From NCBI RefSeq assembly GCF_024223415.1, contig NZ_CP100500.1: a DNA stretch of 64,000 bases; one strand, written 5' to 3'. The notes beneath the pieces are model-generated. The model did not search any database. It was not told where the DNA came from and worked only from the letters and a program-made list of their open reading frames with translations. The translations under genes were made by a program, and so were the position numbers. Source of the DNA: Escherichia coli. GTDB taxonomy: Bacteria; Pseudomonadota; Gammaproteobacteria; Enterobacterales; Enterobacteriaceae. Of the stretch, positions 3,547-53,642 are shown piece by piece (within the stretch, counting starts at the first letter, position 1; each line of letters opens with the position of its first letter).

Positions 3547-4311
3547 TTAACGAGGTAAGGCTGGTGGAATGTATCTGCCGATGCGGTCTTCTATGGTCGG
3601 CAGAATGCACATGCTGTCGCTGAAGCGGTCATGCAACTGGTAAACCAGTTTAGAATCCATTTTTTCGAGAGCAGGCATTAACTGCGCCCGCCAGATTTCG
3701 TTGATGCGCCGGAAGTTATGACAGACGGCGCGGAGATTGTTGATGAACATTTCCTTCTCTGCGTCAGTGACTTCTGTCTGTGTTTTCTGAATACGCTTTG
3801 TGCTGCCATTCCGATAGAAGCGTTCCTGAGCAGCAACAGCCTCATCCACGGTTGGATAGCACCCTACGTAAACGCTCTTCTCTCCGTTCCATGCGTAGGC
3901 TCTGTACGGGTTGTATTTGCTCCGGTGATGGTAAACCATCTTCGGCAGACACTCCCTGTGTGGCGCCAGTATCGTGGAGGATTGCTGGTGCAGTTTGCGT
4001 TCGCACTCGATGAAGTATCGGCGGATCTGGCGGCCTTTTTCGTTGCGCTCCACCATCGCCAGTTCTTTGGCCGTGTCGAGGGTGAGGTGGTAGTCCTTAC
4101 AAAGAACATTTTTACGCTTTCCAGTTTTGGAAAACGTTACGATATAATCCTGATTTTCAACGAATTCATAGTCTGCAATTCGTGATGTAATCCACGCTGC
4201 AAACACTTTCCCTACCCCAAGGAATGCGTGCAGATCGCGAGCATTGCAGAGCAGGGTGGTTTCGTTGGCGATAGCGCCGTTGAAAACGGGGATGAGTTGA
4301 GTTGCCATCAC
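3547..4311 (-). CDS. Protein with AntA/AntB-type antirepressor N-terminal domain
   Basis: 254-aa ORF; N-terminal LIPVFNG ... LHAFLGVGKVFAAWITSRIADYEFVENQDY ... YHLTLDTAKELAMVERNEKGRQIRRYF resembles the AntA/AntB antirepressor domain. Confidence 0.55.
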   Translation of the reverse strand: MMATQLIPVFNGAIANETTLLCNARDLHAFLGVGKVFAAWITSRIADYEFVENQDYIVTFSKTGKRKNVLCKDYHLTLDTAKELAMVERNEKGRQIRRYFIECERKLHQQSSTILAPHRECLPKMVYHHRSKYNPYRAYAWNGEKSVYVGCYPTVDEAVAAQERFYRNGSTKRIQKTQTEVTDAEKEMFINNLRAVCHNFRRINEIWRAQLMPALEKMDSKLVYQLHDRFSDSMCILPTIEDRIGRYIPPALPR

Positions 4312-4469
4312 AGTTACCTCTAACGGTGAAATTCACCGCCACCACTGAGTTGCAAATCTCATATGGGTGGCGAACTGACGAGGTTTGCAATACCGGCGTT
4401 AGAGGAAACCGGCGCGCCGAAGCGCCCCCGCCAGCCCGCCATAATGCGAACGTGGCAAAGCTTGCGACA

Positions 4470-4500
4470 ATAAAAAAGACGCTGGCGCGTCTGGTGTCGC
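4470..4500 (-). terminator. Rho-independent terminator-like hairpin downstream of the DUF2815 gene
   Basis: On the minus strand, AGACGCGCCAGCGTCT hairpin followed by TTTTTTATT (plus-strand aataaaaaagacgctggcgcgtct). Confidence 0.5.
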
Positions 4501-4691
4501 CCCTAACAATTCCGGGTTGCAAATCCCGATCTCCATTTGGGAGATTCGGTGAGCATAAACCGGAAGGGGGCGATGAGTCAATATCGGGGTAGCAGGGCGA
4601 CTGGGTGCTAACCAGAACAATACAGGTAGCTCCGGGCATATTCCCCTTTGCAAAAACACCCGGCGTTTAACCGGGCGTCTGTGAAGCAGGA

Positions 4692-9219: not shown

Positions 9220-11364
9220 ATGGCCCAGATCAATCTCTCATACGGCCGGGAACTGGTAGACAACCTTCCTGTGCCCTGTACTGATGCCGATTTTAACCGG
9301 ACATTTAAGCGTGTTAAAAAGTGGGCTCGTGCTATCGGCGCAACCAAACAGGATACAAAAAGCCAGCTTAACGCCAAAAAAGCGCGTCTGCCCTACATCT
9401 GGCACGCAATGAAGGACGTCACCAAAGGTCGTAACGCTGCTAATGCGGGCAACCGTGATGTGCTCTTCATGGATATGGACGGCTGTAACGCGCCTGCATG
9501 GGGCGCTTTACGCGATGCGCTGGCCTGTTTCTCATGTTTCACCTATTCAACGCCAAGTCATCTGCACCCCACTGCAAACGGGGAACATCGCTGGCGTATC
9601 TGCCTGGAGCTGAGTCGCCAGGTCACGCCCGAAGAGTACAAGCGTCTTGGCCTTGCGGTTGAAAACTGGCTGATGGATTGTATCAGCCTGCTGGACGATT
9701 ACACCGTCAAGTGGGACCACAGCGTTTACAACCCGGACCATATGGTTTTTGCCCCTGATGAAAAGGCCATCTTTGAACGTTTTACCGGGGAACCTGTTGA
9801 CGTTGATATCCTGTTGGCCAGCGCACCGGAAGTTACCATCCCTGAAAAAGCATCTTCCACAGACCGCGATGATTTGTCACGCGCTGTCGAACTGAACGGC
9901 ATCAGTCAGGAAACTTTTGACGACCTGCGCGAAGTGATGTGGCATCCGGCTGTACTGGCAGACGCTGAGCCGGGTTGCGGTAAATACCATAGCTGGGCGG
10001 CGATGGGAAATCGTCTGGCATGGTTTAAGGGAACCGACTGGGAAGACGCAGCCCGTCAGCTTTGGGTCGACTGGTCGATAGCGGGTGGTGGCGATGGCAT
10101 CAGCGCTGAACATAAATGGGACAGTAACCAGCTTACCGCCGAACGAACCGGTTACCAGGCCATTTTCGCCCATGCGCAGAAAGCAGGGGTCGCTAACCCC
10201 GCGACCGACCGTATGCGCGGTTTTGTCGCCGGTGCGAATGACTTCGACGAGTTGCCACCGGAAAAACCGGAGCTGCCAAAGTCCAGACCGCACACAGGCG
10301 GCTACGGTAAGCCGGGAAAGTTCATCATTGAAGGGATGGTGCCGCACGGGGTGACCATGCTCTATGGAGCTTCGTCATCGTTCAAATCCTATGGCGTTAT
10401 CTCCATGCTCTGCCGTGTGGCGACGAAAACTCATCGCTGGGGCGGGCGTAACCTCAAAGGTGGCGCTGTTCTGTATGTTGCCGCTGAGGGTGGCAGCTCC
10501 GTTATGCCGCGTGTCGGCGCATGGGCGGATAAGTACAATGACGGTAAGCCACTGGATTTGTTCTACACCCTGCCACTGGCGGTTGATCTCTCTGTCCCCG
10601 CAAACGTCACAAAGATGGTAAACGAGATTAAGCGCATAGCGTACCACACCGGCGAACCTGTCCGGCTTGTGGCCGTCGACACGCTGTCGCAGTCCATGAT
10701 GCAGGGCGAGGAAAACAGCGCCAGTGATGTGGCAAAATTCATGGCGGGCGCAACCAGGGTGTTCACCGAAACGGGCGCAGCGGTGATTATCGTTCACCAC
10801 AGCGGCAAAGACAGCAGTAAGGGGATGCGTGGCTCTTCTGCTGCCTTTGCTAACGCCGATGCGGTCATTCGCGTGGAACGCATCGGCGACGCGGTGAACC
10901 TGATTAACGAGAAACAGCGTACCGGTCCGGTACAGCCGACCCGCGGTTACATGGTACCGACAGTGCAGCTTCCTGACGACGTTATCGCGGCTAACGAAAC
11001 GTACGATGATGAGTATACCAGCACTGAAGGGGAAGTATATGACCCTGTAAGGCTTACCACCGAGCGCGTGTTTGAAGATGCACCAATGGCGGAGATCACC
11101 CCACTGCTGGTGGATAAGGGCGACGGGAATACCAAAGGCAGCAGCGATGAATCCTGGGTATGGGAAAAGCTGGAGGCCTCCGGCGGCAGCATCAACCGTT
11201 CTGCGCTTCGCGAGTTATGGAAGGATGAAACCGATAAAAGTACCGGTCAGTTACGTGCGGTTCTGGGGCGCATGAAAGAGAAGTATTACATCGTTGAGCG
11301 CGACGGCGTAATCAGGGATCCGCTATGCAATGGCGTACCACCTGGAGGGGATGAAATTGCTTAA
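9220..11364 (+). CDS. Replicative primase-helicase (N-terminal primase-like region, C-terminal RecA-fold AAA_25/RepA-like helicase)
   Basis: 714-aa ORF; C-terminal Walker-type region with LVAVDTLSQS and IIVHHSGKD motifs typical of AAA_25/DnaB-like helicases. Confidence 0.7.
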   Translation: MAQINLSYGRELVDNLPVPCTDADFNRTFKRVKKWARAIGATKQDTKSQLNAKKARLPYIWHAMKDVTKGRNAANAGNRDVLFMDMDGCNAPAWGALRDALACFSCFTYSTPSHLHPTANGEHRWRICLELSRQVTPEEYKRLGLAVENWLMDCISLLDDYTVKWDHSVYNPDHMVFAPDEKAIFERFTGEPVDVDILLASAPEVTIPEKASSTDRDDLSRAVELNGISQETFDDLREVMWHPAVLADAEPGCGKYHSWAAMGNRLAWFKGTDWEDAARQLWVDWSIAGGGDGISAEHKWDSNQLTAERTGYQAIFAHAQKAGVANPATDRMRGFVAGANDFDELPPEKPELPKSRPHTGGYGKPGKFIIEGMVPHGVTMLYGASSSFKSYGVISMLCRVATKTHRWGGRNLKGGAVLYVAAEGGSSVMPRVGAWADKYNDGKPLDLFYTLPLAVDLSVPANVTKMVNEIKRIAYHTGEPVRLVAVDTLSQSMMQGEENSASDVAKFMAGATRVFTETGAAVIIVHHSGKDSSKGMRGSSAAFANADAVIRVERIGDAVNLINEKQRTGPVQPTRGYMVPTVQLPDDVIAANETYDDEYTSTEGEVYDPVRLTTERVFEDAPMAEITPLLVDKGDGNTKGSSDESWVWEKLEASGGSINRSALRELWKDETDKSTGQLRAVLGRMKEKYYIVERDGVIRDPLCNGVPPGGDEIA

Positions 11365-15819: not shown

Positions 15820-15884
15820 TGTTACGGCCAGGTTATTCGTCGTGACCAGGAAAGTGCATTAGCCTGTTGGGGGATAGATCAGTG
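15820..15884 (+). pseudogene. Duplicated 3' end of an endolysin gene (remnant coding ...[20 protein letters not shown]), marking an insertion boundary
   Basis: ctgttacggccaggttattcgtcgtgaccaggaa at 15820 nearly repeats ctgctacggacaggttattcgtcgtgaccaggaa at the 3' end of R (about 15268..15301). Confidence 0.6.
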
Positions 15885-16349
15885 AGCAGAGTCGCCGCGA
15901 TTATTTATGCTCTGGTTATCTGCATCATCGTCTGCCTGTCGTGGGCGGTCAATCATTACCGTGATAACGCCATCGCCTACAAAGAACAGCGTGATAAAAA
16001 AGTCAGTGAGCTGAAGCAGGCGACCGCCACCATTACTGACATGCAGCAACGCCAGCGTGCTGCTGATGTACTCGATGCTAAATACACGAAGGAGTTGGCT
16101 GATGCGAAAGCTGAAAATGATGCTCTTCGGCGCAAGCTTGATAATGGTGGTCGGGTGCTCGTCAAAGGAAAATGCTCTGTGCCATCCTCAGCCGAAACCT
16201 CCAGCGCCTCCGGCATGGGCAATGATGCCACCGTCGAACTCTCTCCAGTTGCTGGACGAAACGTTCTCGGTATCCGGGACGGAATCATCAGAGACCAGAC
16301 AGCACTGAGAACGCTTCAGGAATATATCAGGACGCAATGCCTTCGATGA
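15867..16349 (+). CDS. Rz: Rz i-spanin (inner-membrane spanin subunit); true start probably GTG at 15882
   Basis: [33 protein letters not shown] ... closely resembles lambda Rz as recalled. Confidence 0.8.
16102..16308 (+). CDS. Rz1: Rz1 o-spanin lipoprotein embedded in the +1 frame of Rz
   Basis: [21 protein letters not shown] lipobox and proline-rich [11 protein letters not shown] segment inside the Rz gene. Confidence 0.7.
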
Positions 16350-16550
16350 TAGCGATAATTTTACTGATCATCCTTCACATCTGGCTCTGTAGACAGGGTG
16401 GTGATCACTTCTGGAGTGAATCCAGATTAAACATCTCATTGCTGATGCTTGAAGTTGAGCATCTGGCGCGCGGTAAGGGGCTGCGTTGAAATAAGAGCCA
16501 GTCATTAAAAATACCTGGATTTAGCCTCGCATTCGCGGGGCTTTTTATTG

Positions 16551-16774
16551 CCATTACAAAAGCCACTCCCTACAGAGTGGCTTTGATAATGGCTTATACC
16601 CTACACGGGATAACTTAACTGATATCCCTTTTAACGGATAAAGGTATTCAAGCCTGACACATCATGCGCTGTATCGTCGCCGTATTCCCGTATTAACAGA
16701 GACCGTAGCCCGACGGGGAACTCCTTCTGCGAGAGTGTGCGGGAATAATCAAAAACGATGCACACCGGGTTTTT
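16551..16774. repeat. Direct repeat copy 1 (~224 bp) upstream of the two-gene cassette
   Basis: Near-identical to 18338..18560, with only a few mismatches by eye. Confidence 0.8.
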
Positions 16775-16899
16775 ACCGCGCTAATGATTCGCGGGTTTGT
16801 CCCTCATGCTCGCCAGTCCTGTGCGAGGGTGGAAGAAACAGGGCATGTATTCAGGAGCGTGCGACCGTGGTCGCACGGTATCTTTGTCAGGAGGTTTTG

Positions 16900-17760
16900 A
16901 TGAAAGAGTTGCAAAAAATTAATTCAATAATGGAAAGGTTAAGTGCTCTTGAGCGTAAGCTGGACGATTGTGGAAAGCTGTGTGTTGAAAAGCAAAATGA
17001 GCTTTACCGGGAATTTTTTACAATCGTAAGTGAGCTGATGCCAATTGTTAATAACTGCCTGATGACATCCAGATTTTTTAATGTCGATGCTACTACATCC
17101 AGAAAATTTTCTGTGAAAATTCAAGAAAGAGTTTCTGGTAGTGTGACAAGAGAGATGGCTGAACAGTTGGTGGCAATGAGCAATAAAACAAAAAGAAAAA
17201 AGGCATTGCTTGTAACAGCAAATCAGCTTTCAGGGCGCGTTGACTTTCAGGTCAGACAGGGTGGGCGTGTACTGGTAAATGATGCGTTCGTTGGACGTAG
17301 CTTTAGTCCTTACTCGATAAAATATGATGTTGATGCAGATGATCAGGATATCAGCATTTCCTGGAAATCTGAGACAGCAGGGATTGTATTAACAGCAGAG
17401 TTGTTGAGTGATGATAAAAATGATGTCCAGCATCATTTGGACGAAAAGAATCATATTTCTGAAATTTGTATGAAGCCACGCAGCGGAATGACTTTATTGT
17501 CACGCACTCTTGCTGCTGGCTTTTCTGCACCGGAAAAACGTGTGCTTCTGGTAGTGCCTGAAGATGCAGATATTCGACCACTGAATGGCTGTGATGTTAT
17601 TAGTGCAAAAACATTGCATACCCGCGTCATTCCTGTACCGGATGTGGTCATTATTGATGATGTTGAGAAATGCAAGTCTGTTTCCTCAACTGCCACAATC
17701 AAGCGAATTTTACGTTGTAGCACGTCGGCTGTTGTATTCCGGAAGCAGTTACATAACTAA
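16900..17760 (+). CDS. Hypothetical soluble protein (~286 aa), first gene of the repeat-flanked cassette
   Basis: ORF-track frame 16735..17760; preferred start ATG 16900 with AGGAGG RBS; N-terminal coiled-coil-like segment. Confidence 0.5.
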   Translation: MKELQKINSIMERLSALERKLDDCGKLCVEKQNELYREFFTIVSELMPIVNNCLMTSRFFNVDATTSRKFSVKIQERVSGSVTREMAEQLVAMSNKTKRKKALLVTANQLSGRVDFQVRQGGRVLVNDAFVGRSFSPYSIKYDVDADDQDISISWKSETAGIVLTAELLSDDKNDVQHHLDEKNHISEICMKPRSGMTLLSRTLAAGFSAPEKRVLLVVPEDADIRPLNGCDVISAKTLHTRVIPVPDVVIIDDVEKCKSVSSTATIKRILRCSTSAVVFRKQLHN

Positions 17761-17886
17761 CCAGTTTTGTTTTGCAGAACATCCTCAACTAAAAGCTTAT
17801 AGAAAGAGAGCCTGAGATATTTTTTCTGTCTCTCGTAGTTGTTTGTTTTTTTTTTCGAACAGGCTTACAACTTACAGGATATAAAC

Positions 17887-18336
17887 ATGCAAGAAGAAGC
17901 AAATAAAATTCTTGTTGATTTATTGAAGAAGGCCAGCGATGGAATTGATTCCGCCATTGCATTCAGTCAGGCTCAGATTCCGGATGTTGTTCATCAGTTG
18001 CTGGTATGGAATATGGTTGATAGCCTGATTAAAACATTAATAGCCATTTCAACAATCCCTCTGGTTTTCTGGTTTATGAAGAAGCAGTGCCAAAGAGTTG
18101 AGACAGGTAAAATCGGTGATGAAGGATATTCATGGGAGAAGGGAAATCCCAAATACAGGCCGACAATGGTTTGGGATAGCAAAGGTGATATTAATCTTCT
18201 TATCGTGCCATTGGTTGGAGTTTTGACTATGTGGGGGATTTTTATTATTTGTGCAGTAACCAATATGACATGGTTAAAAATCTGGCTGGCACCTAAGTTA
18301 TATCTAATCGAATACGCAGCATCACTAATTAAATAG
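17887..18336 (+). CDS. Small membrane protein (~150 aa, two predicted TM helices), second gene of the repeat-flanked cassette
   Basis: ORF-track frame 17839..18336; start ATG 17887; hydrophobic segments LIKTLIAISTIPLVFWFM and LLIVPLVGVLTMWGIFIICAV. Confidence 0.5.
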   Translation: MQEEANKILVDLLKKASDGIDSAIAFSQAQIPDVVHQLLVWNMVDSLIKTLIAISTIPLVFWFMKKQCQRVETGKIGDEGYSWEKGNPKYRPTMVWDSKGDINLLIVPLVGVLTMWGIFIICAVTNMTWLKIWLAPKLYLIEYAASLIK

Positions 18337-18337
18337 T

Positions 18338-18560
18338 CCATTACAAAAGCCATTCGCTACAGAGTGGCTTTGATAATGGTTTATACCCTGTACGGGATAA
18401 CTTAACTGATATCCCTTTTAACGGATAAAGGTATTCAAGCCTGACACATCATGCGCTGTATCGTCGCCGTATTCCCGTATTAACAGAGACCGTAGCCCGA
18501 CGGGGAACTCCTTCTGCGCGAGTGTGCGGGAATAATCAAAAACGATGCACACCGGGTTTT
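18338..18560. repeat. Direct repeat copy 2 (~223 bp), immediately after the membrane-protein stop codon
   Basis: Near-identical to 16551..16774. Confidence 0.8.
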
Positions 18561-18631
18561 ACTGTGCTGACAGACGCAGGGTTACTCTCATAGTCGCTTT
18601 TCCGGTGCGATGGTGGAAGAAACCGGGATGT

Positions 18632-18826
18632 TTATTCATCATCTATTTGGATTGATGTATATGCTCTCTTTTCTGACGTTAGTCTCCGACGGCAGGCTTC
18701 AATGACCCAGGCTGAGAAATTCCCGGACCCTTTTTGCTCAAGAGCGATGTTAATTTGTTCAATCATTTGGTTAGGAAAGCGGATGTTGCGGGTTGTTGTT
18801 CTGCGGGTTTTGTTCTTCGTTGACAT
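18632..18826 (-). CDS. Small DNA-binding-like protein (possible ribbon-helix-helix fold) with basic N-terminal tail
   Basis: 64-aa ORF MSTKNKTRRTTTRNIRFPNQMIEQINIALEQKGSGNFSAWVIEACRRRL...; fold assignment is inference. Confidence 0.35.
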   Translation of the reverse strand: MSTKNKTRRTTTRNIRFPNQMIEQINIALEQKGSGNFSAWVIEACRRRLTSEKRAYTSIQIDDE

Positions 18827-19014
18827 GAGGTTGCCCCGTATTCAGTGTCGCTGATTTGTATTGTCTGAAGTTGTTTTTACGTTAAGTTGATGCAGATCAA
18901 TTAATACGATACCTGCGTCATAATTTATTATTTGACGTGGTTTGATGGCGTAGATGCACGTTGTGACATGTAGATGATAATTATTATCATTTTGCGGGTC
19001 CTTTCCGGCATGTG

Positions 19015-19060
19015 GACCGTTACGGGGCGTCGACCTCGCGGTTTTTCGCTATTTATGAGA
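19015..19060. other. cos site (cosN with lambda-like cohesive-end sequence, start of cosB)
   Basis: ggggcgtcgacctcgcggtttttcgctatttatga closely resembles the lambda cos sequence GGGCGGCGACCTCGCGGGTTTTCGCTATTTATGA as recalled; located ~200 bp upstream of Nu1. Confidence 0.8.
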
Positions 19061-19252
19061 TTTTTTGAGGGGGTGGTTGTTGTTTAATTGTTTGGTATAT
19101 CTAATTGATAAGTAAGGTGAAAATAAAATAAATACAACAACCTTACGATGTGCTTTGATGTCATTAATGTGAAAAAATTAAATGATATCAAATGGTTTTG
19201 TAAAAACACATGGTTGTTGTATCGCTTTTTATCGATGACTTATGGAGAGGAG

Positions 19253-19759
19253 ATGGCCTTTTTATTGAATAAAAGTGATATGGCCTCCTCCATCGGTATC
19301 TCTGTTCAGGCATTTGATAAATGGGGTGTTCCTCCTGTCGAGCGTCGGGGGAGGGAAGTTTTTTATGACGTTAAAACTGTACTGGAGATAGATCGCGAGC
19401 GGCGACAACACAATCATAGAACACCTGATGACGGGGGCGATCTGGAGGAAAGGCTGCTTCGGGCCAGAGCTGAACTGACAGAAGAACAGGCCGTAGCTCA
19501 AAAACTTAAAAATCAGGTAACCGAAGGTAAGCTCATCGATTCAGACTTCTGCGTTTTCGCCCTCAGCAAGCTGGCGATGGCATTGTCCAGTACGCTTGAT
19601 TCTATTCCGTTATCCATGCAGCGACAGTTCCCGGATTTAACGCCACGTCATCTTGACCATCTGAAAACCCTTATTGCGAAGGGCGCAAATCAGTGTGCGC
19701 GGGCAGGGGATAAATTACCGGATTTGCTGGATGAATATATCAGAGCAACAACTGAATAA
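19253..19759 (+). CDS. nu1: Terminase small subunit (lambda Nu1-like)
   Basis: FCVFALSKLAMALSSTLDSIPLSMQRQFPDLTPRHLDHLK resembles lambda Nu1; start at ATG 19253 (GGAGAGGAG RBS). Confidence 0.8.
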   Translation: MAFLLNKSDMASSIGISVQAFDKWGVPPVERRGREVFYDVKTVLEIDRERRQHNHRTPDDGGDLEERLLRARAELTEEQAVAQKLKNQVTEGKLIDSDFCVFALSKLAMALSSTLDSIPLSMQRQFPDLTPRHLDHLKTLIAKGANQCARAGDKLPDLLDEYIRATTE

Positions 19760-21659
19760 TCTGATGGCTGCCGTTTCGGTTGCGCTGCAGCCTCTGGTCA
19801 GGGTTGTACCGATGACGGCAGTTGAATGGGCTGATCAAAATTATTATCTGCCGAAAGAATCCTCATACGGTGACGGCGAATGGAAAACGCTGCCGTTCCA
19901 GATCGCCATCATGAACAGTATGGGGAATGATCAGGTCCGCACTGTTAATCTGATTAAATCTGCCCGTATTGGTTATACAAAGATGTTGCTGGGGGTGGTC
20001 GGGTATTTTATTGAGCATAAATCCCGAAACAGTCTGCTTTTTCAGCCCACGGATTCTGCCGCTGAAGATTTTATGAAGTCTCACGTGGAGACGACGATTA
20101 GGGACGTGCCATGCCTGAAAGACCTTTCCCCATGGCTGGGTCGTAAACATCGTGATAATACCCTCACGCTGAAACGCTTTTCATCGGGCGTCGGTTTCTG
20201 GTGCCTGGGCGGCGCTGCCGCCAAAAACTACCGTGAAAAATCCGTGGACGTGGTCTGCTATGACGAACTCTCATCGTTTGAACCTGATGTTGAAAAAGAG
20301 GGCTCGCCAACCCTGCTGGGGGATAAGCGTATTGAGGGCTCTGTATGGCCAAAATCCATTCGCGGCTCGACGCCTAAAATCAAAGGCTCCTGCCAGATCG
20401 AAAAAGCCGCTAACGAGTCGGCACATTTCATGCGTTTTTATGTGCCCTGTCCGCACTGTGGGGAGGAGCAGTATCTGAAATTTGGTGATGATGCCTCGGC
20501 TTTCGGTCTTAAGTGGGAGAAGAATAAGCCAGAAAGTGTTTTCTACCTTTGTGAGCATCATGGCTGTGTGATCCATCAGTCTGAGCTTGACCAGAGTAAC
20601 GGGCGGTGGATCTGTGAAAACACGGGGATGTGGACCCGTGACGGTCTGACGTTTTTCAGCGCCCGGGGTGATGAAATTCCGCCGCCGCGCTCCATCACTT
20701 TCCATATCTGGACGGCGTACAGTCCGTTCACCACCTGGGTACAGATAGTCTATGACTGGCTGGATGCACTGAAAGATCCCAACGGCCTGAAAACCTTTGT
20801 GAACACCACGCTGGGCGAGACCTGGGAAGAGGCCGTGGGCGAAAAACTCGATCACCAGGTACTGATGGATAAGGTTGTGCGTTACACGGCGGCGGTGCCT
20901 GCCCGGGTGGTTTATCTGACGGCGGGCATTGACTCGCAGCGAAACCGTTTTGAGATGTATGTCTGGGGATGGGCTCCGGGAGAGGAAGCCTTTCTGGTGG
21001 ATAAAATCATCATTATGGGACGTCCCGATGAGGAAGAGACGCTGTTACGTGTGGATGCGGCGATCAACAAAAAATACTGCCATGCAGACGGAACCGAAAT
21101 GACCATTTCCCGTGTCTGCTGGGACATCGGGGGGATCGATGGCGAAATCGTTTATCAGAGGTCAAAAAAACACGGTGTTTTCCGGGTGCTGCCGGTAAAA
21201 GGCGCATCTGTCTATGGCAAGCCGGTGATCACCATGCCAAAAACCCGCAATCAGCGGGGCGTGTATCTGTGTGAAGTGGGGACGGACACCGCAAAAGAAA
21301 TTCTCTATGCCCGTATGAAAGCCGCTCCCACGCCTGCGGATGAATCCACGTCGTATGCCATCCGTTTTCCTGATGATCCGGAGATTTTTTCGCAGACAGA
21401 GGCGCAGCAACTGGTCGCGGAAGAGCTTGTGGAGAAGTGGGAAAAAGGAAAGATGCGTCTGCTGTGGGATAACAAAAAGCGGCGTAACGAAGCGCTGGAC
21501 TGCCTGGTGTATGCCTACGCGGCATTACGTGTGTCCGTGCAACGCTGGCAGCTTGATCTGGCTGTACTGGCAAAATCCCGGGAAGAAGAGACGACCCGGC
21601 CAACCCTTAAAGAACTGGCAGCGAAGCTGTCCGGAGGAGTGAATGGTTACAGTCGCTGA
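19731..21659 (+). CDS. A: Terminase large subunit (lambda gpA-like)
   Basis: MNISEQQLNNLMAAV ... TAVEWADQNYYLPKES ... closely resembles lambda A; overlaps the Nu1 end. Confidence 0.9.
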   Translation: MNISEQQLNNLMAAVSVALQPLVRVVPMTAVEWADQNYYLPKESSYGDGEWKTLPFQIAIMNSMGNDQVRTVNLIKSARIGYTKMLLGVVGYFIEHKSRNSLLFQPTDSAAEDFMKSHVETTIRDVPCLKDLSPWLGRKHRDNTLTLKRFSSGVGFWCLGGAAAKNYREKSVDVVCYDELSSFEPDVEKEGSPTLLGDKRIEGSVWPKSIRGSTPKIKGSCQIEKAANESAHFMRFYVPCPHCGEEQYLKFGDDASAFGLKWEKNKPESVFYLCEHHGCVIHQSELDQSNGRWICENTGMWTRDGLTFFSARGDEIPPPRSITFHIWTAYSPFTTWVQIVYDWLDALKDPNGLKTFVNTTLGETWEEAVGEKLDHQVLMDKVVRYTAAVPARVVYLTAGIDSQRNRFEMYVWGWAPGEEAFLVDKIIIMGRPDEEETLLRVDAAINKKYCHADGTEMTISRVCWDIGGIDGEIVYQRSKKHGVFRVLPVKGASVYGKPVITMPKTRNQRGVYLCEVGTDTAKEILYARMKAAPTPADESTSYAIRFPDDPEIFSQTEAQQLVAEELVEKWEKGKMRLLWDNKKRRNEALDCLVYAYAALRVSVQRWQLDLAVLAKSREEETTRPTLKELAAKLSGGVNGYSR

Positions 21660-34706: not shown

Positions 34707-37700
34707 ATGGGTAAAGGCAGCAGTAAGGGGCATACCCCGCGCGAAGCGAAGGACAACCTGAAGTCCACGCAGTTGCTGAGTGTGATCGATGTCATCAGCG
34801 AAGGGCCGATACAAGGACCGGTGGATGGATTAAAAAGCGTGCTGCTGAACGGTACGCCGGTGCTGGACAGTGAGGGGAATACCAATATATCCGGCGTCAC
34901 GGTGGTATTCCGGGCCGGTGAGCAGGAGCAGACGCCGCCGGAGGGATTTGAATCCTCCGGCTCCGAGACGGTGCTGGGTACGGAAGTGAAGTACGACACG
35001 CCGATTACCCGGACCATCACGTCGGCAAACATCGACCGTCTGCGCCTGACCTTCGGTGTGCAGGCACTGGTGGAAACCACCTCAAAGGGGGACCGGAATC
35101 CGTCGGAAGTCCGCCTGCTGGTTCAGATACAGCGTAACGGTCGCTGGTTAACGGAAAAAGACATCACCATTAAGGGAAAAACCACTTCACAGTATCTGGC
35201 TTCGGTGGTGGTGGATAACCTGCCGCCGCGCCCGTTCAGTATCCGGATGCGCAGGATGACACCGGACAGCACCACAGACCAGCTGCAGAACAAAACGCTC
35301 TGGTCGTCATACACCGAAATCATCGATGTGAAACAGTGCTACCCGAACACGGCACTGGTCGGTGTGCAGGTGGATTCGGAGGAGTTCGGCAGCCAGCAGG
35401 TGAGCCGTAATTATCATTTTCGCGGGCGCATTCTGCAGGTGCCGTCGAACTATAACCCGCAGACGCGGCAATACAGCGGTATCTGGGACGGAACGTTTAA
35501 ACCGGCATACAGCGATAACCCGGCCTGGTGTCTGTGGGATATGCTGACCCACCCGCGCTACGGCATGGGGAAACGTGTTGGCGCAGCGGATGTGGACAAA
35601 TGGGCGCTGTATGTCATCGGCCAGTACTGCGACCAGTCGGTGCCGGACGGCTCTGGTGGCACGGAGCCGCGCATCACCTGTAATGCCTGGCTGACCAGGC
35701 AGCGTAAGGCGTGGGATGTGCTCAGTGATTTCTGCTCGGCGATGCGCTGTATGCCGGTATGGAACGGGCAGACGCTGACGTTCGTGCAGGACCGACCGTC
35801 GGATAAGGTGTGGACCTATAACCGCAGTAATGTGGTGATGCCGGATGATGGCGCGCCGTTCCGCTACAGCTTCAGCGCCCTGAAGGACCGCCATAATGCC
35901 GTTGAGGTGAACTGGAGTGACCCGGATAACGGCCAGGAGACGGCGACAGAGCTTGTGGAGGACACGCAGGCCATTGCCCGTTACGGTCGTAACGTCACGA
36001 AGATGGATGCCTTTGGCTGTACCAGCCGGGGGCAGGCACACCGCGCCGGGCTGTGGCTGATTAAAACAGAACTGCTGGAGACGCAGACCGTGGATTTCAG
36101 CGTGGGTGCTGAAGGGCTTCGCCATGTACCGGGCGATGTCATTGAAATCTGTGATGATGACTATGCCGGTATCAGCACCGGTGGTCGTGTGCTGGCGGTG
36201 AACAGCCAGACCCGGACGCTGACGCTCGACCGTGAAATCACGCTGCCATCCTCCGGTACCACGCTGATAAGTCTGGTTGACGGAAGTGGCAATCCGGTCA
36301 GCGTGGAGGTTCAGTCCGTCACCGACGGCGTGAAGGTAAAAGTGAGCCGGGTTCCTGACGGCGTTGCCGAGTACAGCGTGTGGGGGCTGAAGCTGCCGAC
36401 GCTGCGCCAGCGCCTGTTCCGCTGCGTGAGTATCCGTGAGAACGACGACGGCACGTATGCCATCACTGCCGTGCAGCATGTACCGGAAAAAGAGGCCATC
36501 GTGGATAACGGGGCGCACTTTGACGGCGACCAGAGCGGAACGGTGAATGGTGTCACGCCGCCAGCGGTGCAGCACCTGACCGCAGAAGTCACCGCAGACA
36601 GCGGGGAATATCAGGTGCTGGCGCGCTGGGACACGCCGAAGGTGGTGAAGGGCGTGAGCTTCCTGCTTCGCCTGACCGTGGCCGCGGATGACGGCAGTGA
36701 GCGGCTGGTCAGCACGGCCCGGACGACGGAAACCACATACCGCTTCAGGCAGCTGGCGCCGGGGAACTACAGGCTGACAGTCCGGGCAGTAAATTCCCGG
36801 GGGCAGCAGGGAGACCCGGCGTCGGTATCGTTCCGGATTGCCGCACCGGCAGCGCCGTCGCGGATTGAGCTGACGCCGGGCTATTTTCAGATAACCGCCA
36901 CGCCGCATCTTGCCGTTTATGATCCGACGGTACAGTTTGAGTTCTGGTTTTCGGAAAAGCGGATTACCGATATCAGGCAGGTTGAAACCACAGCCCGTTA
37001 TCTTGGTACCGGAAGTCAGTGGCTTGTCTCCGGCCAGAATATTAAACCTGGCCATGATTATTACTTTTATATCCGCAGTGTTAACACTGTCGGTAAATCG
37101 GCATTCGTGGAGGCAGTCGGTCGGGCGAGTAATGATCCTGCCGGTTACCTTAATTTTTTCAGGGGGGCGATAAATAAAACGCATCTGGGACGGGAGATCA
37201 ATGAACGCATTGATGCCTCTGCACTGCGCACTGAAGTTGAGCAACTGGAGAATGAGATTAACCGCGAAATGACGCAGCTGGAGAAAGATGTGAGGCAGCG
37301 TGCGGAGCGTGATATCGCCGAGGTGACGAAAAAAATCACGGCGTCTGAAAACAGCATAACGGAACTGGTGGCGAAAAAGAGCGGTGAACAGTCGCTGGCC
37401 ATTGCGAAAGTCGACAGGAAAGTTGACAGCGTGAGCAGTGAAATCCGGCAGACAGTGAGCAGGAGCACGGAGGAGAACAGCCGACAGATAGCGCAGGTCA
37501 GGCAGTATGTTGATGATAAAAGTGCGCAAATAAGTACTGTTGTGGCGAAAAAGAGCGCTGAACAGTCAATGGCCATTGCGGAAGTTGACAGAAAAGTTGA
37601 CAGGATGGGAAGCGAAATCCGGCAGACAGTAAGCAGGAGCACGGAGGAGAACAGCCGACAGATAGCGCAGATCAGACAGTATGTTGATGATAAGGGAAGT

Positions 37701-39477: not shown

Positions 39478-41292
39478 ATGGCGGCTGTAAAAATTTCAGG
39501 CGTGCTGAGGGACGGAACCGGAAAACCGGTACCGGGATGCATTATTGAGCTGAAAGCGAAGAGAACCAGCGAGACAGTCATCGCCACGACAGTGGCTTAT
39601 GGCATGCCGGAAGAGACGGGGAGTTACAGTATGGATGTGGAGCCAGGAATATACAGGGTGACACTCAATACAGAAGGTTACCGTCCTTCGTATGTGGGAG
39701 ATATCGTGGTCAGGGAGGATTCTTCACCGGGAACACTGAATAAATTTCTGATGGAGATGGAAGATGCTCCTTATTATCCGAAGGCGTTGTCAGAGCTGGA
39801 GGCTGTGGTGCAGTCCATACTGCACAGAGCAGAGTCCGCGGCATCTGAGGCGGAGGAAGCCCGGAAACGAGCAGCATCTGCCCGGGGACCACGAGGAGAG
39901 AAAGGGGATACCGGCGCTCGTGGTGAAAGAGGCATTACCGGGCCACAGGGGCCAAAAGGTGAAACAGGAGCACGTGGCCCGGCAGGACCACAGGGACCAA
40001 AAGGTGAAACAGGTGAACGCGGTCCGGCAGGTCCACAGGGACTAAAGGGCGATACAGGTGAACGCGGCCCGGCAGGTCCACAGGGACCAAAGGGTGAAAC
40101 AGGTGCACGCGGCCCGGCAGGTCCACAGGGAGCAAAGGGCGAAACAGGTGAACGCGGCCCGGCAGGTCCACAGGGAGCAAAGGGCGAAACAGGTGCACGT
40201 GGTCCGGAAGGCCCTCAGGGTCTGAAGGGAGAAAAGGGTGAGCGAGGAGAAAAAGGCCCTAAGGGGGATAAAGGAGATCCGGGAGGTCCACAGGGACCAA
40301 AGGGGGATACAGGTGAACGCGGCCCGGCAGGTCCACAGGGATCAAAGGGCGATACAGGTGAACGTGGCCCGGCAGGTCCTCAGGGACCAAAGGGGGATAC
40401 AGGTGAACGTGGCCCGGAAGGTCCACAGGGAGCAAAGGGTGAAACAGGTGAACGCGGCCCGGCAGGACCACAGGGACCAAAAGGTGAAACAGGTGAACGC
40501 GGTCCGACAGGTCCACAGGGAGCAAAAGGTGAAACAGGAGCACGCGGTCCGGCAGGTCCTCAGGGACCAAGAGGAGAGTCAGCCCGTGGACAACTGCTGA
40601 ATGGTGATCTGAACCGACTGGGACGAGTGACCGATCAGGGTGATTATTATCAGCCATCAGACAGTGGGGCTACACGAGAAAATAATTATCCGATTCAGAG
40701 AGCGGGTTATCTTCAGGTAAGAGTTGGTGCATGGGGATATTGCCAGCATGAATATACAACCTGGAACCCACCACGAAAGTTCGTAAGAACTGTTACTGGT
40801 AATTTTACCGGTAATGGCCCCTGGTCTGAATGGAAAGAGCTGGGAGCCCAGGGGGAGCGTGGTCCACAGGGACCAAAAGGTGAAACAGGTGCACGCGGTC
40901 CGGCAGGTCCACAGGGACTAAAGGGCGAAACAGGTGCACGTGGCCTGGCAGGTCCTCGGGGGCCAAGAGGGTATACAGGTGAACGCGGCCCGGCAGGTCC
41001 ACAGGGGCCAAGAGGAGAAGCGGGGCGGCCAGCGAGCGTCGGAAGTGTTTATTCCGTGGGGTCTTATGTTCTGGGGATCATAGAACGAAATCATGAGATA
41101 ACAAATACCCGTCAAATACCCGGGTATCGTATCAGACAGGCCGTTATTGTGTCGTCGTCATCGGATAAACTTACAGATATCCGCTTTTTATTTGGCAATC
41201 CTATGCTTGGTACATGGATGTTATGCACAACTAACATGACGGTGAATAATATCAGTGGGACGATTTGGGGCCTGTTTCAGAGAATACTGTGA
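39478..41292 (+). CDS. stf: Side tail fibre protein (Stf-like N-terminus) with long collagen-like Gly-X-Y repeat region
   Basis: N-terminus [18 protein letters not shown] resembles lambda Stf; two blocks of GXY triplets ([19 protein letters not shown]...). Confidence 0.8.
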
Positions 41293-42321: not shown

Positions 42322-43731
42322 ATGAAATTTATAATGGCAAAGAATGTATTGGCAATGGCGGTTACCGGTGCGCTGTTATGTTACTCTGTGGGGGTTATGG
42401 CAGAAGAGAGTTTTAATGTAGATGGATATGAGGTTACTCTGTATGATAATGGTGCGGCAGTAATATCAAAAGGTAATGATGTTAATCTTATTAATACTAT
42501 TACTGGAGCTAATACAGGGCGTATTGTCCCGAATGATTCTATTACGCGTGCTATATTAGCAGCTCCTGAGAATGCTAGGCATATTGTTGCTCAGGATTTG
42601 CTAACTTACCCCATCTACTCAGATGCATTAAAAGCCGAAAACATCAGAAATATAAAAGCAGAAGATATAAAGTCCATTGTTGATACAAAAGAATCACTAC
42701 AAAAAATAATCAAGCCAGAAAACAAGGATGATTATATCGCCGCTGTTAATGCTGGTGGTACCGCTGAGGATTTTATTAAAATTAGTAATACAACATCGGG
42801 ATTGTCATCATTGTATAAAAATGTAGTTGAAGGCCAGAATTTTGTTCTGGATTCATCAGGCCGAATCACTGCTGACGGAAGGGCTGACGGAAATGCTCAG
42901 ACAGTCCCTGTTAAAGAATTCGTCGTGGAGCTGGATAATCGTACCCGCAACCTTGGGGTTGAAGTGAAATCACAGGGAGACAGTCTGCGTGGTGAGATAG
43001 GTGGTGTATACAGAGATGCCCGTGCTCATACTGACAGTCAGGTCACAGCAGTACGTGATGAACTGAAGGCAGAGGGAGACAGTCTGCGCGGTGAGATAGG
43101 CGGTGTATACAGAGATGCCCGTGCTCATACTGACAGTCAGGTTACAGCAGTACGTGATGAACTCAGCAGGGATATTATTGCAGGCACATCGGCAGCGGTG
43201 GCGTATACGGATGCATCTTCTCTTGCTCTTCAGGATGAAATAAAAGAAAAAGCGGATGAAACAGTTCAGGTTTCCCGGGCTTATACAGATAAAAGTGTAC
43301 GGGATGCCCGTAAAGAAGCGAAAAGCCAGGCAGAACATCTCAGCGATGTGCTTGTGAAGAACAGGGCGCAGACGGATGCAGCAATAGCCTCAAATACAGC
43401 AGCGATAAGGAATAACAGTCATCGTCTGGATTTGACGGAAGCCTGGCAGAAGATGGCGACAGAGAGAATGAATAATATGCAGGAGCAGATTAAAGAGAAC
43501 CGGAAGGAGTTAAGGGAGAGTGCAGCCCAGAGCGCGGCACTGGCCGGTCTTTTCCAGCCATACAGTGTTGGAAAATTTAACGCGACAGCAGCCGTTGGTG
43601 GTTACCGTGATGAGCAGGCCATTGCGGTGGGCGTGGGCTACCGTTTCACAGAGAATGTGGCAGGAAAAGTTGCAGTTGCTGCAGGTGGGTCATCCGCATC
43701 GTGGAATGCTGGTGTGAATTTTGAGTTCTGA
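42322..43731 (+). CDS. Trimeric autotransporter adhesin-like protein (YadA-like C-terminal anchor); resembles prophage-encoded Eib immunoglobulin-binding proteins
   Basis: Signal peptide; coiled-coil stalk with 33-aa tandem repeat; C-terminal anchor [10 protein letters not shown] ... [20 protein letters not shown]. Confidence 0.7.
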
Positions 43732-45184: not shown

Positions 45185-46033
45185 TCAAACCAGTTTTTTC
45201 ACCAGTGCCTCGCTGTGACGAATGCGCTCAGGGGCCAGTTCGAGATCCTGCTGGATTAGCGCAATGAACAGCAAATCTGTAAGCATTCCCTGAGCGTGAC
45301 AAGCGGAGATCGACGCACTATTCGTCGCCTGTTCTTCGGCAATAGTATACAGGCAATGGGATGCTCGTTGTTGCAGAGCATTCGGCGTGAAACCGGTAAT
45401 TGCCAGCACCTTTCCACCCACGCGCAGCATCTCATCCGCCGCGAGATTCAACTCACGTCGTACACCAGTGTAAGAGATGGCTAATAACAGATCGTCCGGT
45501 GAGGATGCCTGTACAGTAGCGAGCAACGCATGCATATCGCGTTCTGCGGCAGCATTGAAACCAATCTTCATCAGTTTCCAGGCAAAGTTTTGCGCTACCA
45601 GACCCGAAGCGCCAATGCCAGTCAAAATAATCCGCCGTGCAGAACGCAACATCACCACGCATTCATGTAATTTCTCTTCACTGTTAACGTTCAGTGTCGC
45701 ATACATGGCAGCCGTGTTTTCTTTTATGAGCTTTTCACCCACCAGTCGCAGCGGATCATCACCGCGAATTTGGTTATGAATGGGGACAGAAGGGGATTCC
45801 GGCTGGCTCGCCAGAGCTTCGCTTAACGCGAGTTTTAAGGCAGGAAAACCTTTATAGCCGAGTTTTTGCGCGAACTTCACGACGCTGGACTGACTGACTC
45901 CGGCTTCGTTGGCCAGTTGCTGAGAGCTTAAATGGCGCGCCGTATCAGGTTGTAGCAGCAGATAATCCGCCAGTTTTTTATCACTCTGGGCAAGCCCCTG
46001 GTAACGCTGACGGATACGAAGTAAGCCGTTCAT
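45185..46033 (-). CDS. yfhH: RpiR-family transcriptional regulator (HTH plus SIS domain), YfhH-like
   Basis: HTH SQQLANEAGVSQSSVVKFAQKLGYKGF and SIS-domain region; conserved neighbour of pgpC/tadA; start taken at MNGLLRIRQ. Confidence 0.85.
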   Translation of the reverse strand: MNGLLRIRQRYQGLAQSDKKLADYLLLQPDTARHLSSQQLANEAGVSQSSVVKFAQKLGYKGFPALKLALSEALASQPESPSVPIHNQIRGDDPLRLVGEKLIKENTAAMYATLNVNSEEKLHECVVMLRSARRIILTGIGASGLVAQNFAWKLMKIGFNAAAERDMHALLATVQASSPDDLLLAISYTGVRRELNLAADEMLRVGGKVLAITGFTPNALQQRASHCLYTIAEEQATNSASISACHAQGMLTDLLFIALIQQDLELAPERIRHSEALVKKLV

Positions 46034-46241
46034 ATCTTTCCTCGCGATGAAATAGTGGCGACAACAGGCAATATGAGACACACGCGAGTGAATTTTATAT
46101 TCCATTGCCGCTAATTGCCATGAATTAAAAATTCCAGTTAGCCATGATGCGGTCGATTGTTGCCGGAAAAGTGATGATCTATCTGTTAGGCTATGTAGTA
46201 GCGAAAATTAATCAGGATGTTTCAGTCCAGAGGAGTATGGT

Positions 46242-46877
46242 TTGGCAACTCACGAGCGTCGTGTGGTGTTTTTTGACTTAGATGGAACATTGCATCAGCA
46301 GGATATGTTCGGCAGTTTTCTGCGCTATTTACTGCGTCGCCAACCGCTGAATGCGTTACTTGTCCTGCCGTTGTTGCCGATTATAGCCATTGCGTTATTG
46401 ATAAAAGGTCGTGCGGCACGCTGGCCGATGAGTCTGCTTCTGTGGGGATGCACTTTTGGTCACAATGAAGCGCGTTTGCAGGCGTTGCAGGCCGATTTCG
46501 TACGCTGGTTTCGTGACAATGTTACCGCCTTTCCGCTGGTTCAGGAGCGATTAACCACCTACCTGTTAAGTTCTGATGCTGATATCTGGTTGATTACCGG
46601 CTCTCCGCAGCCGCTGGTTGAAGCGGTTTATTTCGATACGCCCTGGCTGCCGCGAGTTAATCTTATCGCCAGCCAAATTCAGCGTGGCTATGGTGGTTGG
46701 GTATTGACGATGCGTTGTCTGGGACATGAAAAGGTCGCACAACTGGAGCGCAAAATCGGCACGCCGCTGCGGCTGTACAGTGGCTATAGCGACAGTAATC
46801 AGGACAATCCGCTGCTTTATTTCTGTCAGCATCGTTGGCGAGTAACCCCGCGCGGTGAACTCCAGCAACTGGAATAG
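46242..46877 (+). CDS. pgpC: Phosphatidylglycerophosphatase C (HAD-family)
   Basis: FFDLDGTL HAD motif I, TM helix; conserved position next to tadA. Confidence 0.85.
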   Translation: MATHERRVVFFDLDGTLHQQDMFGSFLRYLLRRQPLNALLVLPLLPIIAIALLIKGRAARWPMSLLLWGCTFGHNEARLQALQADFVRWFRDNVTAFPLVQERLTTYLLSSDADIWLITGSPQPLVEAVYFDTPWLPRVNLIASQIQRGYGGWVLTMRCLGHEKVAQLERKIGTPLRLYSGYSDSNQDNPLLYFCQHRWRVTPRGELQQLE

Positions 46878-46889
46878 AGTAAAGCATAG

Positions 46890-48991
<2,102 letters not shown>

Positions 48992-53456: not shown

Positions 53457-53642
53457 AGTGGCTCATTCACCGACTTATGTCAGCCCCTTCGGGACGTGCT
53501 ACATAAAATTCGAATGACGCACAACAAGGTGCCTGCCGTCCAACTTCTGATATCAGCGTAGCTATATCAACCATCGGGCGAAACGTCGAGTTAGGCACCG
53601 CCTTATTCCATAACAAAGCCGGGTAATTCCCGGCTTTGTTGT
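53457..53642 (+). ncRNA. glmY: GlmY small regulatory RNA
   Basis: Begins agtggctcattcaccgacttatgtcagcccc downstream of the sigma-54 promoter, ends at terminator aaagccgggtaattcccggctttgttgt; located between purL and glrK as in E. coli K-12. Confidence 0.8.

Follow-up and report, generated by a model that had tools for sequence, protein, structure and literature searches.

The DNA analysed here, hereafter the window, is a 64-kb stretch of Escherichia coli sequence that contains an integrated lambdoid prophage with a cI/S24-type repressor, an AntA antirepressor accompanied by C4/isrK-type RNAs, and a DNA polymerase A homologue. Several features lie on the minus strand towards the left of the window: sRNA-Xcc1 (272-355) at the window's left edge; a gene for a TIR domain protein of the CAP12/Pycsar-effector type (617-1357; Pfam E = 6e-31) at the prophage's left edge, which is likely an anti-phage defence gene; and the AntA antirepressor gene (3550-4311), directly 5′ of which stand the C4 antisense RNA (4363-4446) and isrK (4472-4545). 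Together, the elements from 3550 to 4545 resemble a secondary immunity module of the P1/N15-like kind, here within a lambdoid prophage. A YadA-like membrane anchor protein (42322-43731, plus strand) is the last large open reading frame after the tail-fibre genes. The interval considered here belongs to the late region, between the lysis genes and cos, and has the following features.

15867-16349: Rz spanin gene of the late region, followed by a 50-aa open reading frame
16523-16542, plus strand: strong intrinsic terminator, AGCCTCGCATTCGCGGGGCT followed by TTTTTATT (d = +18.5), the positive control for terminator scoring
16551-16843, plus strand: conserved non-coding element, copy 1, ending in GGTGGAAGAAACAGG at a mosaic junction
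16859-16876, no strand assigned: 18-bp palindrome GTGCGACC-GT-GGTCGCAC, by the identity of its arms a putative N15-type SopB centromere repeat (IR)
16858-16877, no strand assigned: the palindrome with one further C/G pair (CGTGCGACC..GGTCGCACG; C16858/G16877), giving 9-bp arms like those of N15 IR3 and IR4
16889-16894, plus strand: AGGAGG ribosome-binding site of cassette gene 1, outside the stem
16900-17760, plus strand: cassette gene 1 (286 aa, phrog_2571)
17887-18336, plus strand: cassette gene 2 (149 aa, phrog_3054), whose homologue in phage HF4s is annotated as a TM helix-containing protein
18338-18627, plus strand: conserved non-coding element, copy 2, followed by lambda-like right-end sequence and by no SopB site
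18632-18826, minus strand: small protein of the DUF3950 / YlcI-YnfO family, elsewhere not associated with the palindrome, in sequence 95% identical to the lambda right end
19025-19036, plus strand: cosN-like 12-mer GGGCGTCGACCT
19148-19759: Nu1 gene, after the cosN-like 12-mer

The 12-mer was called cosN-like by comparison with the lambda sequence GGGCGGCGACCT. Some 10 nt 5′ of a cosQ-like GGGTCCT lies a perfect AT-rich palindrome, ATGATAAT-T-ATTATCAT (18974-18990), which is conserved in lambda (ATGATAATCATTATCA) and resembles the Fur-box consensus GATAATGATAATCATTATC. In lambdoid phages the same-strand genes of this interval form a Q-dependent late operon (PMC11364771). Since the terminator at 16523-16542 stands within that operon, past Rz and ahead of cos, late transcripts have to pass it by Q antitermination. 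An AT-rich hairpin with 19-bp arms (16550-16593) follows this terminator, and the record of phage Ayreon annotates that hairpin as a terminator.

A two-gene cassette between copies of a conserved element

The two cassette genes had no match in Pfam, PADLOC, NCBIfam or PDB. We considered the Tai/Ati system (PMC11364771) and the TelA/ImmA telocin (PMC12042878) as identities for the cassette and set both aside, as those genes lie in a different orientation or at a different locus. Gene 1 has allelic variants with only the first ~25 codons in common (L035, L124, L236, L262 and L270), and gene 2 occurs without gene 1 in phages Gally, HF4s and Oslo.

The ~290-nt non-coding element is a direct duplication around the cassette, the first 223 nt being 97% identical between the two copies. 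Its core (~16665-16843), part of which corresponds to lambda 46868-46974, occurs in 341 phage records; of 5,426 E. coli genomes, 1,518 have it. The element ends in GGTGGAAGAAAC(A/C)GG, after which sequences diverge completely at a mosaic junction. Among 93 variants no reading frame was consistently open, and the element had no match in Rfam; in its stem-loops, whole stems are replaced between variants.

The palindrome upstream of the cassette

The palindrome begins 15 nt after the end of the first element copy (16843). Its full sequence is GTGCGACCGTGGTCGCAC, with a 16-bp core of TGCGACC-GT-GGTCGCA, and its two 8-bp arms pair perfectly, whereas the GT between them is not palindromic. The stem stops 12 nt short of AGGAGG, and 24 nt separate the palindrome from the ATG of the gene at 16900. 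The initial annotation had described a perfect inverted repeat with 8-bp arms around GT, placed between the repeat element and the ribosome-binding site of the 16900 gene, and both the coordinates and the placement proved exact.

As a generic palindrome the sequence is unremarkable and its significance weak: first-order Markov simulations of the window, with spacers of 0-8, gave 10.4 ± 4.3 perfect inverted repeats with 8-bp arms per 64 kb and 2.8 ± 2.5 with 9-bp arms. As a specific sequence its significance is very high. The 16 bases that make up the arms are those of the inverted repeats of phage N15, and 2e-5 chance occurrences of these 16 specified bases are expected in a 64-kb window.

The arms are those of the N15 centromere repeats

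Both arms are identical to those of N15 IR2, IR3 and IR4 (N15 positions 35930, 41124 and 45561), while the left arm of IR1 (33479, inside repA) differs at one base. The copy at 35930 follows a Q-like gene; the copy at 41124 lies directly 5′ of the annotated late promoter; and the copy at 45561 lies between genes 58 and 59, near the right cos, where the annotation of NC_001901 has a putative rho-independent terminator. When positions 16551-16900 of the window were compared with N15 by an unbiased blastn search, IR4 and IR3 were the only matches, and the sequences flanking the N15 repeats were unrelated to those in the window. Ravin and Lane in 1999 and Grigoriev and Lobocka in 2001 are said to have described IR1-IR4 as the centromere repeats to which SopB(N15) binds. 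The natural N15 centromere sites IR1-4 are tabulated with arms GTGCGACC/GGTCGCAC and centres AC, TC, AT and AC (PMC7205306, Table 4).

The centre of the site is constrained as well. The GT of the window reads AC on the opposite strand and is thus a purine-pyrimidine step, and such a step occupied the centre in 94 of the 98 distinct contexts of the perfect site among the matches listed (AC in 45, GT in 40, AT in 6 and GC in 3). F SopB was measured to require a purine-pyrimidine centre (PMC3177203), so the constraint on the centre matches a known requirement of a SopB protein. No such constraint on the loop would be expected of a bare RNA hairpin.

The exact 18-mer is also present in 2-4 copies per locus in related phages, each copy with unrelated flanks, and one such multi-copy phage, YDC107_1, is classified as Ravinvirus, that is, N15-like. 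A scan of IMG/VR for GTGCGACCNNGGTCGCAC returned many contigs with 2-6 copies among the matches listed. N15-type RepA was also encoded in 23 of 88 newly fetched loci, and TelN in 4 of the 88. On this evidence we consider it likely that the palindrome is an N15-type Sop centromere repeat, a site for a dimer of the ParB-family protein SopB, which is an orphan in this prophage, descends from a site like those of PhiR46_1 and is idle in cis. That SopB would bind the window copy we infer from its match to N15 sites that have been tested. The genome of an N15-like linear phage-plasmid has about four such sites, dispersed along it, and these nucleate the partition complexes by means of which SopA segregates the prophage-plasmid.

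The initial annotation had proposed an operator for a dimeric regulator. The part of that proposal that concerned a dimeric DNA-binding protein agrees with the arms, which are those of sites for N15 SopB, a helix-turn-helix dimer; the other part gives way, the site type being that of a centromere repeat and not of a promoter operator.

The window copy is related to a site in PhiR46_1

PhiR46_1 is an N15-like telomere phage-plasmid with annotated telL/telR, ParA and ParB. Its ParB is 73.7% identical to N15 SopB and matched the DNA-binding domain structures of F SopB (3MKY/3MKW/3MKZ) with E = 6e-39. PhiR46_1 has four perfect sites, at 10374, 14753, 17793 and 18013, and the site at 18013 corresponds to that of the window, with the same sequence. 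A megablast comparison aligned the two genomes over one long segment.

16666-18621, plus strand: segment 95.4% identical to PhiR46_1 17821-19775 (1,960 bp), comprising the element core, the SopB site, both cassette genes and the second element copy

In PhiR46_1 the element is bracketed by two SopB sites, and the homology with the window starts 10 bp past the other of these, a SopB site in its own right. By this alignment the window copy shares its descent with one of the four sites that PhiR46_1-like telomere phages have. The copy probably entered the integrated lambdoid prophage along with the two-gene cassette, by recombination in the late region that the two kinds of element share, from the lysis genes to cos. 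Transfer would thereby have run from phage-plasmid to prophage.

The site stands alone in the prophage

Dispersed copies are the rule among the relatives, with four in PhiR46_1, four in N15 and up to six in IMG/VR contigs among the matches listed, whereas the 64-kb window holds a single copy. Searches by tblastn with SopA, SopB, TelN and RepA of N15 and with ParA and ParB of PhiR46_1 returned no match within the 64-kb window, outside which the left end of the prophage lies. Where PhiR46_1 has sopBA and telR, 3′ of the late genes, the window has chromosomal-type genes, among them an RpiR-family regulator (45185-46105) and GlmY (53457-53604, plus strand). With neither sopA nor sopB nor a second site in the window, the copy is an orphan that would do nothing by itself in cis. 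Rather than switching the genes beside it, it is probably carried along as an idle hitch-hiker, its present inactivity being deduced from this setting, and for this prophage the site probably has no biological consequence. The site would be occupied only where an N15-like phage-plasmid supplies SopB in trans, in which case silencing of the cassette, or a roadblock at its start 24 nt away, is conceivable.

Distribution and decay of the copies

The site together with the cassette was found in 27 complete E. coli genomes, on 10 plasmid-sized records (36-63 kb, most ~46 kb) and 17 chromosomes. PhiR46-type sopAB was detected in 15 complete E. coli genomes; it accompanied the site on 8 of the 10 plasmid-sized records and on none of the 17 chromosomes, in a megablast search that would miss genes less than ~85% identical. 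Cassette-type loci, which are mostly N15-like, had perfect arms in 34 of 36 cases, and where 5 kb or more of upstream sequence was available, further sites were present at 14 of 16 loci. At cos-adjacent loci of lambdoid phages, 8 of 40 sites were perfect and 32 decayed, and further sites were found in 0 of 16. Read as a comparison of loci, these data fit relaxed constraint on orphan sites.

Decay takes several forms. The common decayed form of the site is GTGTGACT/GGTCGCAA. In the chromosomal copy of E. coli TUM1886, the right arm has decayed to GGTTGCTC and the site abuts a truncated HNH gene. Other variants have the centre changed from GT to AC or have lost the whole stem by a precise deletion. 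In three IMG/VR loci (L099, L213 and L219), compared with the L239 type, ~28-31 nt were deleted precisely between the direct repeats GGTCTGT...GGTC(G/T)GT that flank the palindrome, with loss of the SopB site, and the centre is inverted from GT to AC in L124 and L270. Precise deletions and inverted centres are signatures of palindrome-associated slippage or template switching.

The stem is not confined to the cassette. Phage 2B8 and many prophages have it behind the same conserved element, some 100 nt ahead of cosN, where the cassette is absent, and it also precedes at least two further kinds of downstream sequence. The 2B8 copy has a symmetrical double change in its arms (GTGCAACC/GGTTGCAC), and both single-change intermediates occur. 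This double change hints that pairing or symmetry is kept up in the absence of SopB, but it could equally arise by template-switch mutation inside a palindrome. Five of six sampled chromosomal copies were still perfect, which suggests recent transfer and also fits a constraint independent of SopB, a point against inactivity.

The site as a possible boundary between exchanged modules

Other readings of the same sequence were weighed as well. One of them is compatible with the centromere identity: the short, invariant SopB site may mark a boundary of modules, or be a recombination linker, where sequences otherwise without relation to each other become joined. Mosaic junctions lie at both edges of the site, so such a role may be possible. 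The upstream flank is mosaic: the left edge is preceded by GGTCT, by GGAGC or immediately by a truncated HNH gene. On the other side, four or more continuations that are unrelated to one another begin directly after the stem. Hybrid combinations of flanks exist (L047), L265 has the arrangement element-site-cassette-element-site, and the onset of homology between the window and PhiR46_1, close to the neighbouring SopB site, can be read in the same way. Were the linker reading true, it would account for the precision with which phage-plasmids and integrated lambdoid prophages exchange cargo cassettes and cos-proximal segments at the edges of the site. Against these points, 18-20 bp is very short for homologous exchange, and the upstream element too ends in a mosaic junction, without a palindrome there, so that the clustering of junctions may reflect a hotspot and not the site. 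Taken together, we regard a linker function as rather unlikely.

The site as a possible stem-loop in the late transcript

A second reading places the function in RNA, as a stem-loop in the Q-dependent late transcript. It would be a weak intrinsic terminator, an insulator or an mRNA-stabilising hairpin directly 5′ of the cassette, or 5′ of cos in phages that lack the cassette, whether as the main or a second function. The predicted hairpin is a stable, GC-rich stem-loop of the kind seen in terminators (8 pairs and a 4-nt loop, -12.5 kcal/mol), and a lenient consensus scan flagged 16858-16877 followed by GTATCTTTGT as terminator-like. Three downstream contexts are T-rich (GACTTTTGTCG, GGTATCTTTGTC and GCATTTCTTTTATTG), and cos-proximal copies tend to have T-rich tails, including N15 IR4 with its terminator annotation. 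The double change in 2B8 is compensatory, and several variants would form U.G pairs on the plus strand.

A d'Aubenton-Carafa-type terminator score nevertheless gave negative values for all variants (-23 to -53), whereas the control at 16523-16542 scored +18.5 with the same code. The tail in the window (GTATCTTTGTCAGGA) scored d = -32.4, its T tract being weak and displaced, and a T tract is missing altogether from the L239-type context. Deletion forms that lack the hairpin exist (L099, L213 and L219), and the split of single transitions on the plus strand, four wobbles against two mismatches, lacked significance. The recurrence of the exact 18-mer at several unrelated sites per genome, and a purine-pyrimidine centre in 96% of contexts among the matches listed, are not requirements of a hairpin. 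Rfam returned no match at the site at either gathering or E-value thresholds. The negative scores, the context without T residues, the lack of an Rfam match and an ordinary predicted fold together make the RNA reading weak, and we judge it improbable. A secondary role as weak terminator or RNA stabiliser may exist, but the data can be explained without one, and the score argues the other way.

Control of translation by the hairpin, as first suggested for this site, was rejected: the ribosome-binding site lies outside the stem and is not occluded, and the 5′ UTR fold prediction that had been called for was not unusual (16790-16940, z = -0.85), to which the negative terminator score may be added.

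Orphan sites as possible targets of a phage-plasmid in the same cell

A more speculative extension of the centromere reading holds that orphan sites are not inert. SopB from an N15-like phage-plasmid, either resident in the cell or incoming, could silence the cargo genes beside them or block late transcription of a rival prophage, or titration of SopB by the orphan sites could destabilise the phage-plasmid and lead to exclusion of the incompatibility type, and the 18-mer could in addition be a portable linker by which cassettes are shuttled between phage-plasmids and integrated prophages. We think this a long shot.

The site as a supposed operator of the cassette

A cassette-specific operator fares worse. 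In that reading, a dimeric transcription factor, be it the DUF3950 protein, a cI-like repressor or CRP, would bind the palindrome and control the gene at 16900. The geometry is suitable, with 8+2+8 bp, half-site centres 10 bp apart and a position 24 nt 5′ of the ATG, and the commonest cos-adjacent variant has a left half like the CRP consensus, TGTGA. The TGCGA-N6-TCGCA of the site itself resembles the CRP consensus TGTGA-N6-TCACA. The CRP-like and Chi-like resemblances of the palindrome were considered and dropped.

There is no promoter-like site on the plus strand within reach: a search of 16500-16900 for sigma-70-like promoters found none at a threshold of 9 of 12 positions, the best candidates having 8 of 12. 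The same site adjoins cos where no gene follows, and occurs at three or four unrelated places in N15-like genomes. The 2B8 variant, TGCAA/TTGCA, loses the key G of a CRP half-site in both arms. The adjacent protein encoded at 18632..18826, which the initial annotation had named as a possible binder, belongs to a family (DUF3950/YlcI) that occurs in lambda and DLP12, both of which lack the palindrome, and the palindrome occurs in N15 without that neighbourhood. With no promoter, sites without the cassette, and neighbour genes without the site, the operator reading is rejected as very improbable, and the suggestion that the cassette is regulated through the palindrome finds no support in this prophage.

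That the palindrome arose by chance and has no biological meaning would accord with the few generic inverted repeats of 8-9 bp expected per 64 kb, but it is refuted by the match of 16 bases to the N15 arms, at 2e-5 expected, and by conservation of the site over many loci and contexts, and we give it practically no credence.

What the site would tell about gene flow

Read as an N15-type centromere repeat, the palindrome gains a precise identity that can be tested, the site of a partition protein of a known family, in place of a conjectural operator or riboswitch-like hairpin. This reading would also document gene flow between linear phage-plasmids of the N15/PhiR46_1 type and integrated lambdoid prophages, through a cargo hotspot between the lysis genes and cos. 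Along this route the centromere repeat appears to travel with the two-gene cargo cassette, and to decay where SopB is absent. For annotation, the exact 18-mer would be a useful marker of N15-like ancestry, and should not by default be called a terminator or an operator.

Comparison with known partition sites and terminators

Among features of known kind, rho-independent terminators are similar in having a GC-rich stem of 8-9 bp, a 4-nt loop and a partly T-rich stretch after it; the site differs in that its sequence is invariant also where no T tract follows. With chromosomal and P1-type ParB-parS systems it shares the principle that a ParB-family protein nucleates on a short palindrome and then spreads, but the recognition sequence is different. 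With no cognate ParB encoded in the window, neither spreading nor silencing is expected here unless SopB is supplied in trans. The Sop system of N15 reportedly facilitates expression of the N15 late genes, in work from 2008 by Ravin and colleagues. When N15 sites were placed in a lambda prophage at att-lambda, SopB(N15) formed foci on them, and a weak promoter ~50 bp from the IR array was silenced (PMC7205306).

The sopC site of F is closer. It is a SopB helix-turn-helix dimer site with 7-bp arms and a 2-bp purine-pyrimidine centre, and 14 of 16 core positions are identical. The difference lies at arm position 3, where C and G are swapped (TGCGACC in the window and TGGGACC in F), and in arrangement, the 16-bp F sequence TGGGACCACGGTCCCA standing in 43-bp tandem repeats, whereas the window has a single site and so departs from the F type. 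N15 SopB can use sopC, whereas F SopB does not function with the N15 sites (PMC7205306).

The likeness is closest to N15 itself. The arrangement of arms GTGCGACC/GGTCGCAC around a 2-bp centre is identical to that of IR1-IR4, the flanking C/G pair is common to IR3 and IR4, and IR4 lies, like the site in the window, in that part of the late region which runs from the lysis genes to the right cos. The close relative PhiR46_1 has this very site as one of four dispersed copies together with sopAB, whereas the window has one copy, in an integrated prophage without sopAB, telN or an N15-type repA. The kind of element, an N15-type Sop centromere repeat, is thus already known; what is unusual is its context, as an orphan in an integrated prophage.
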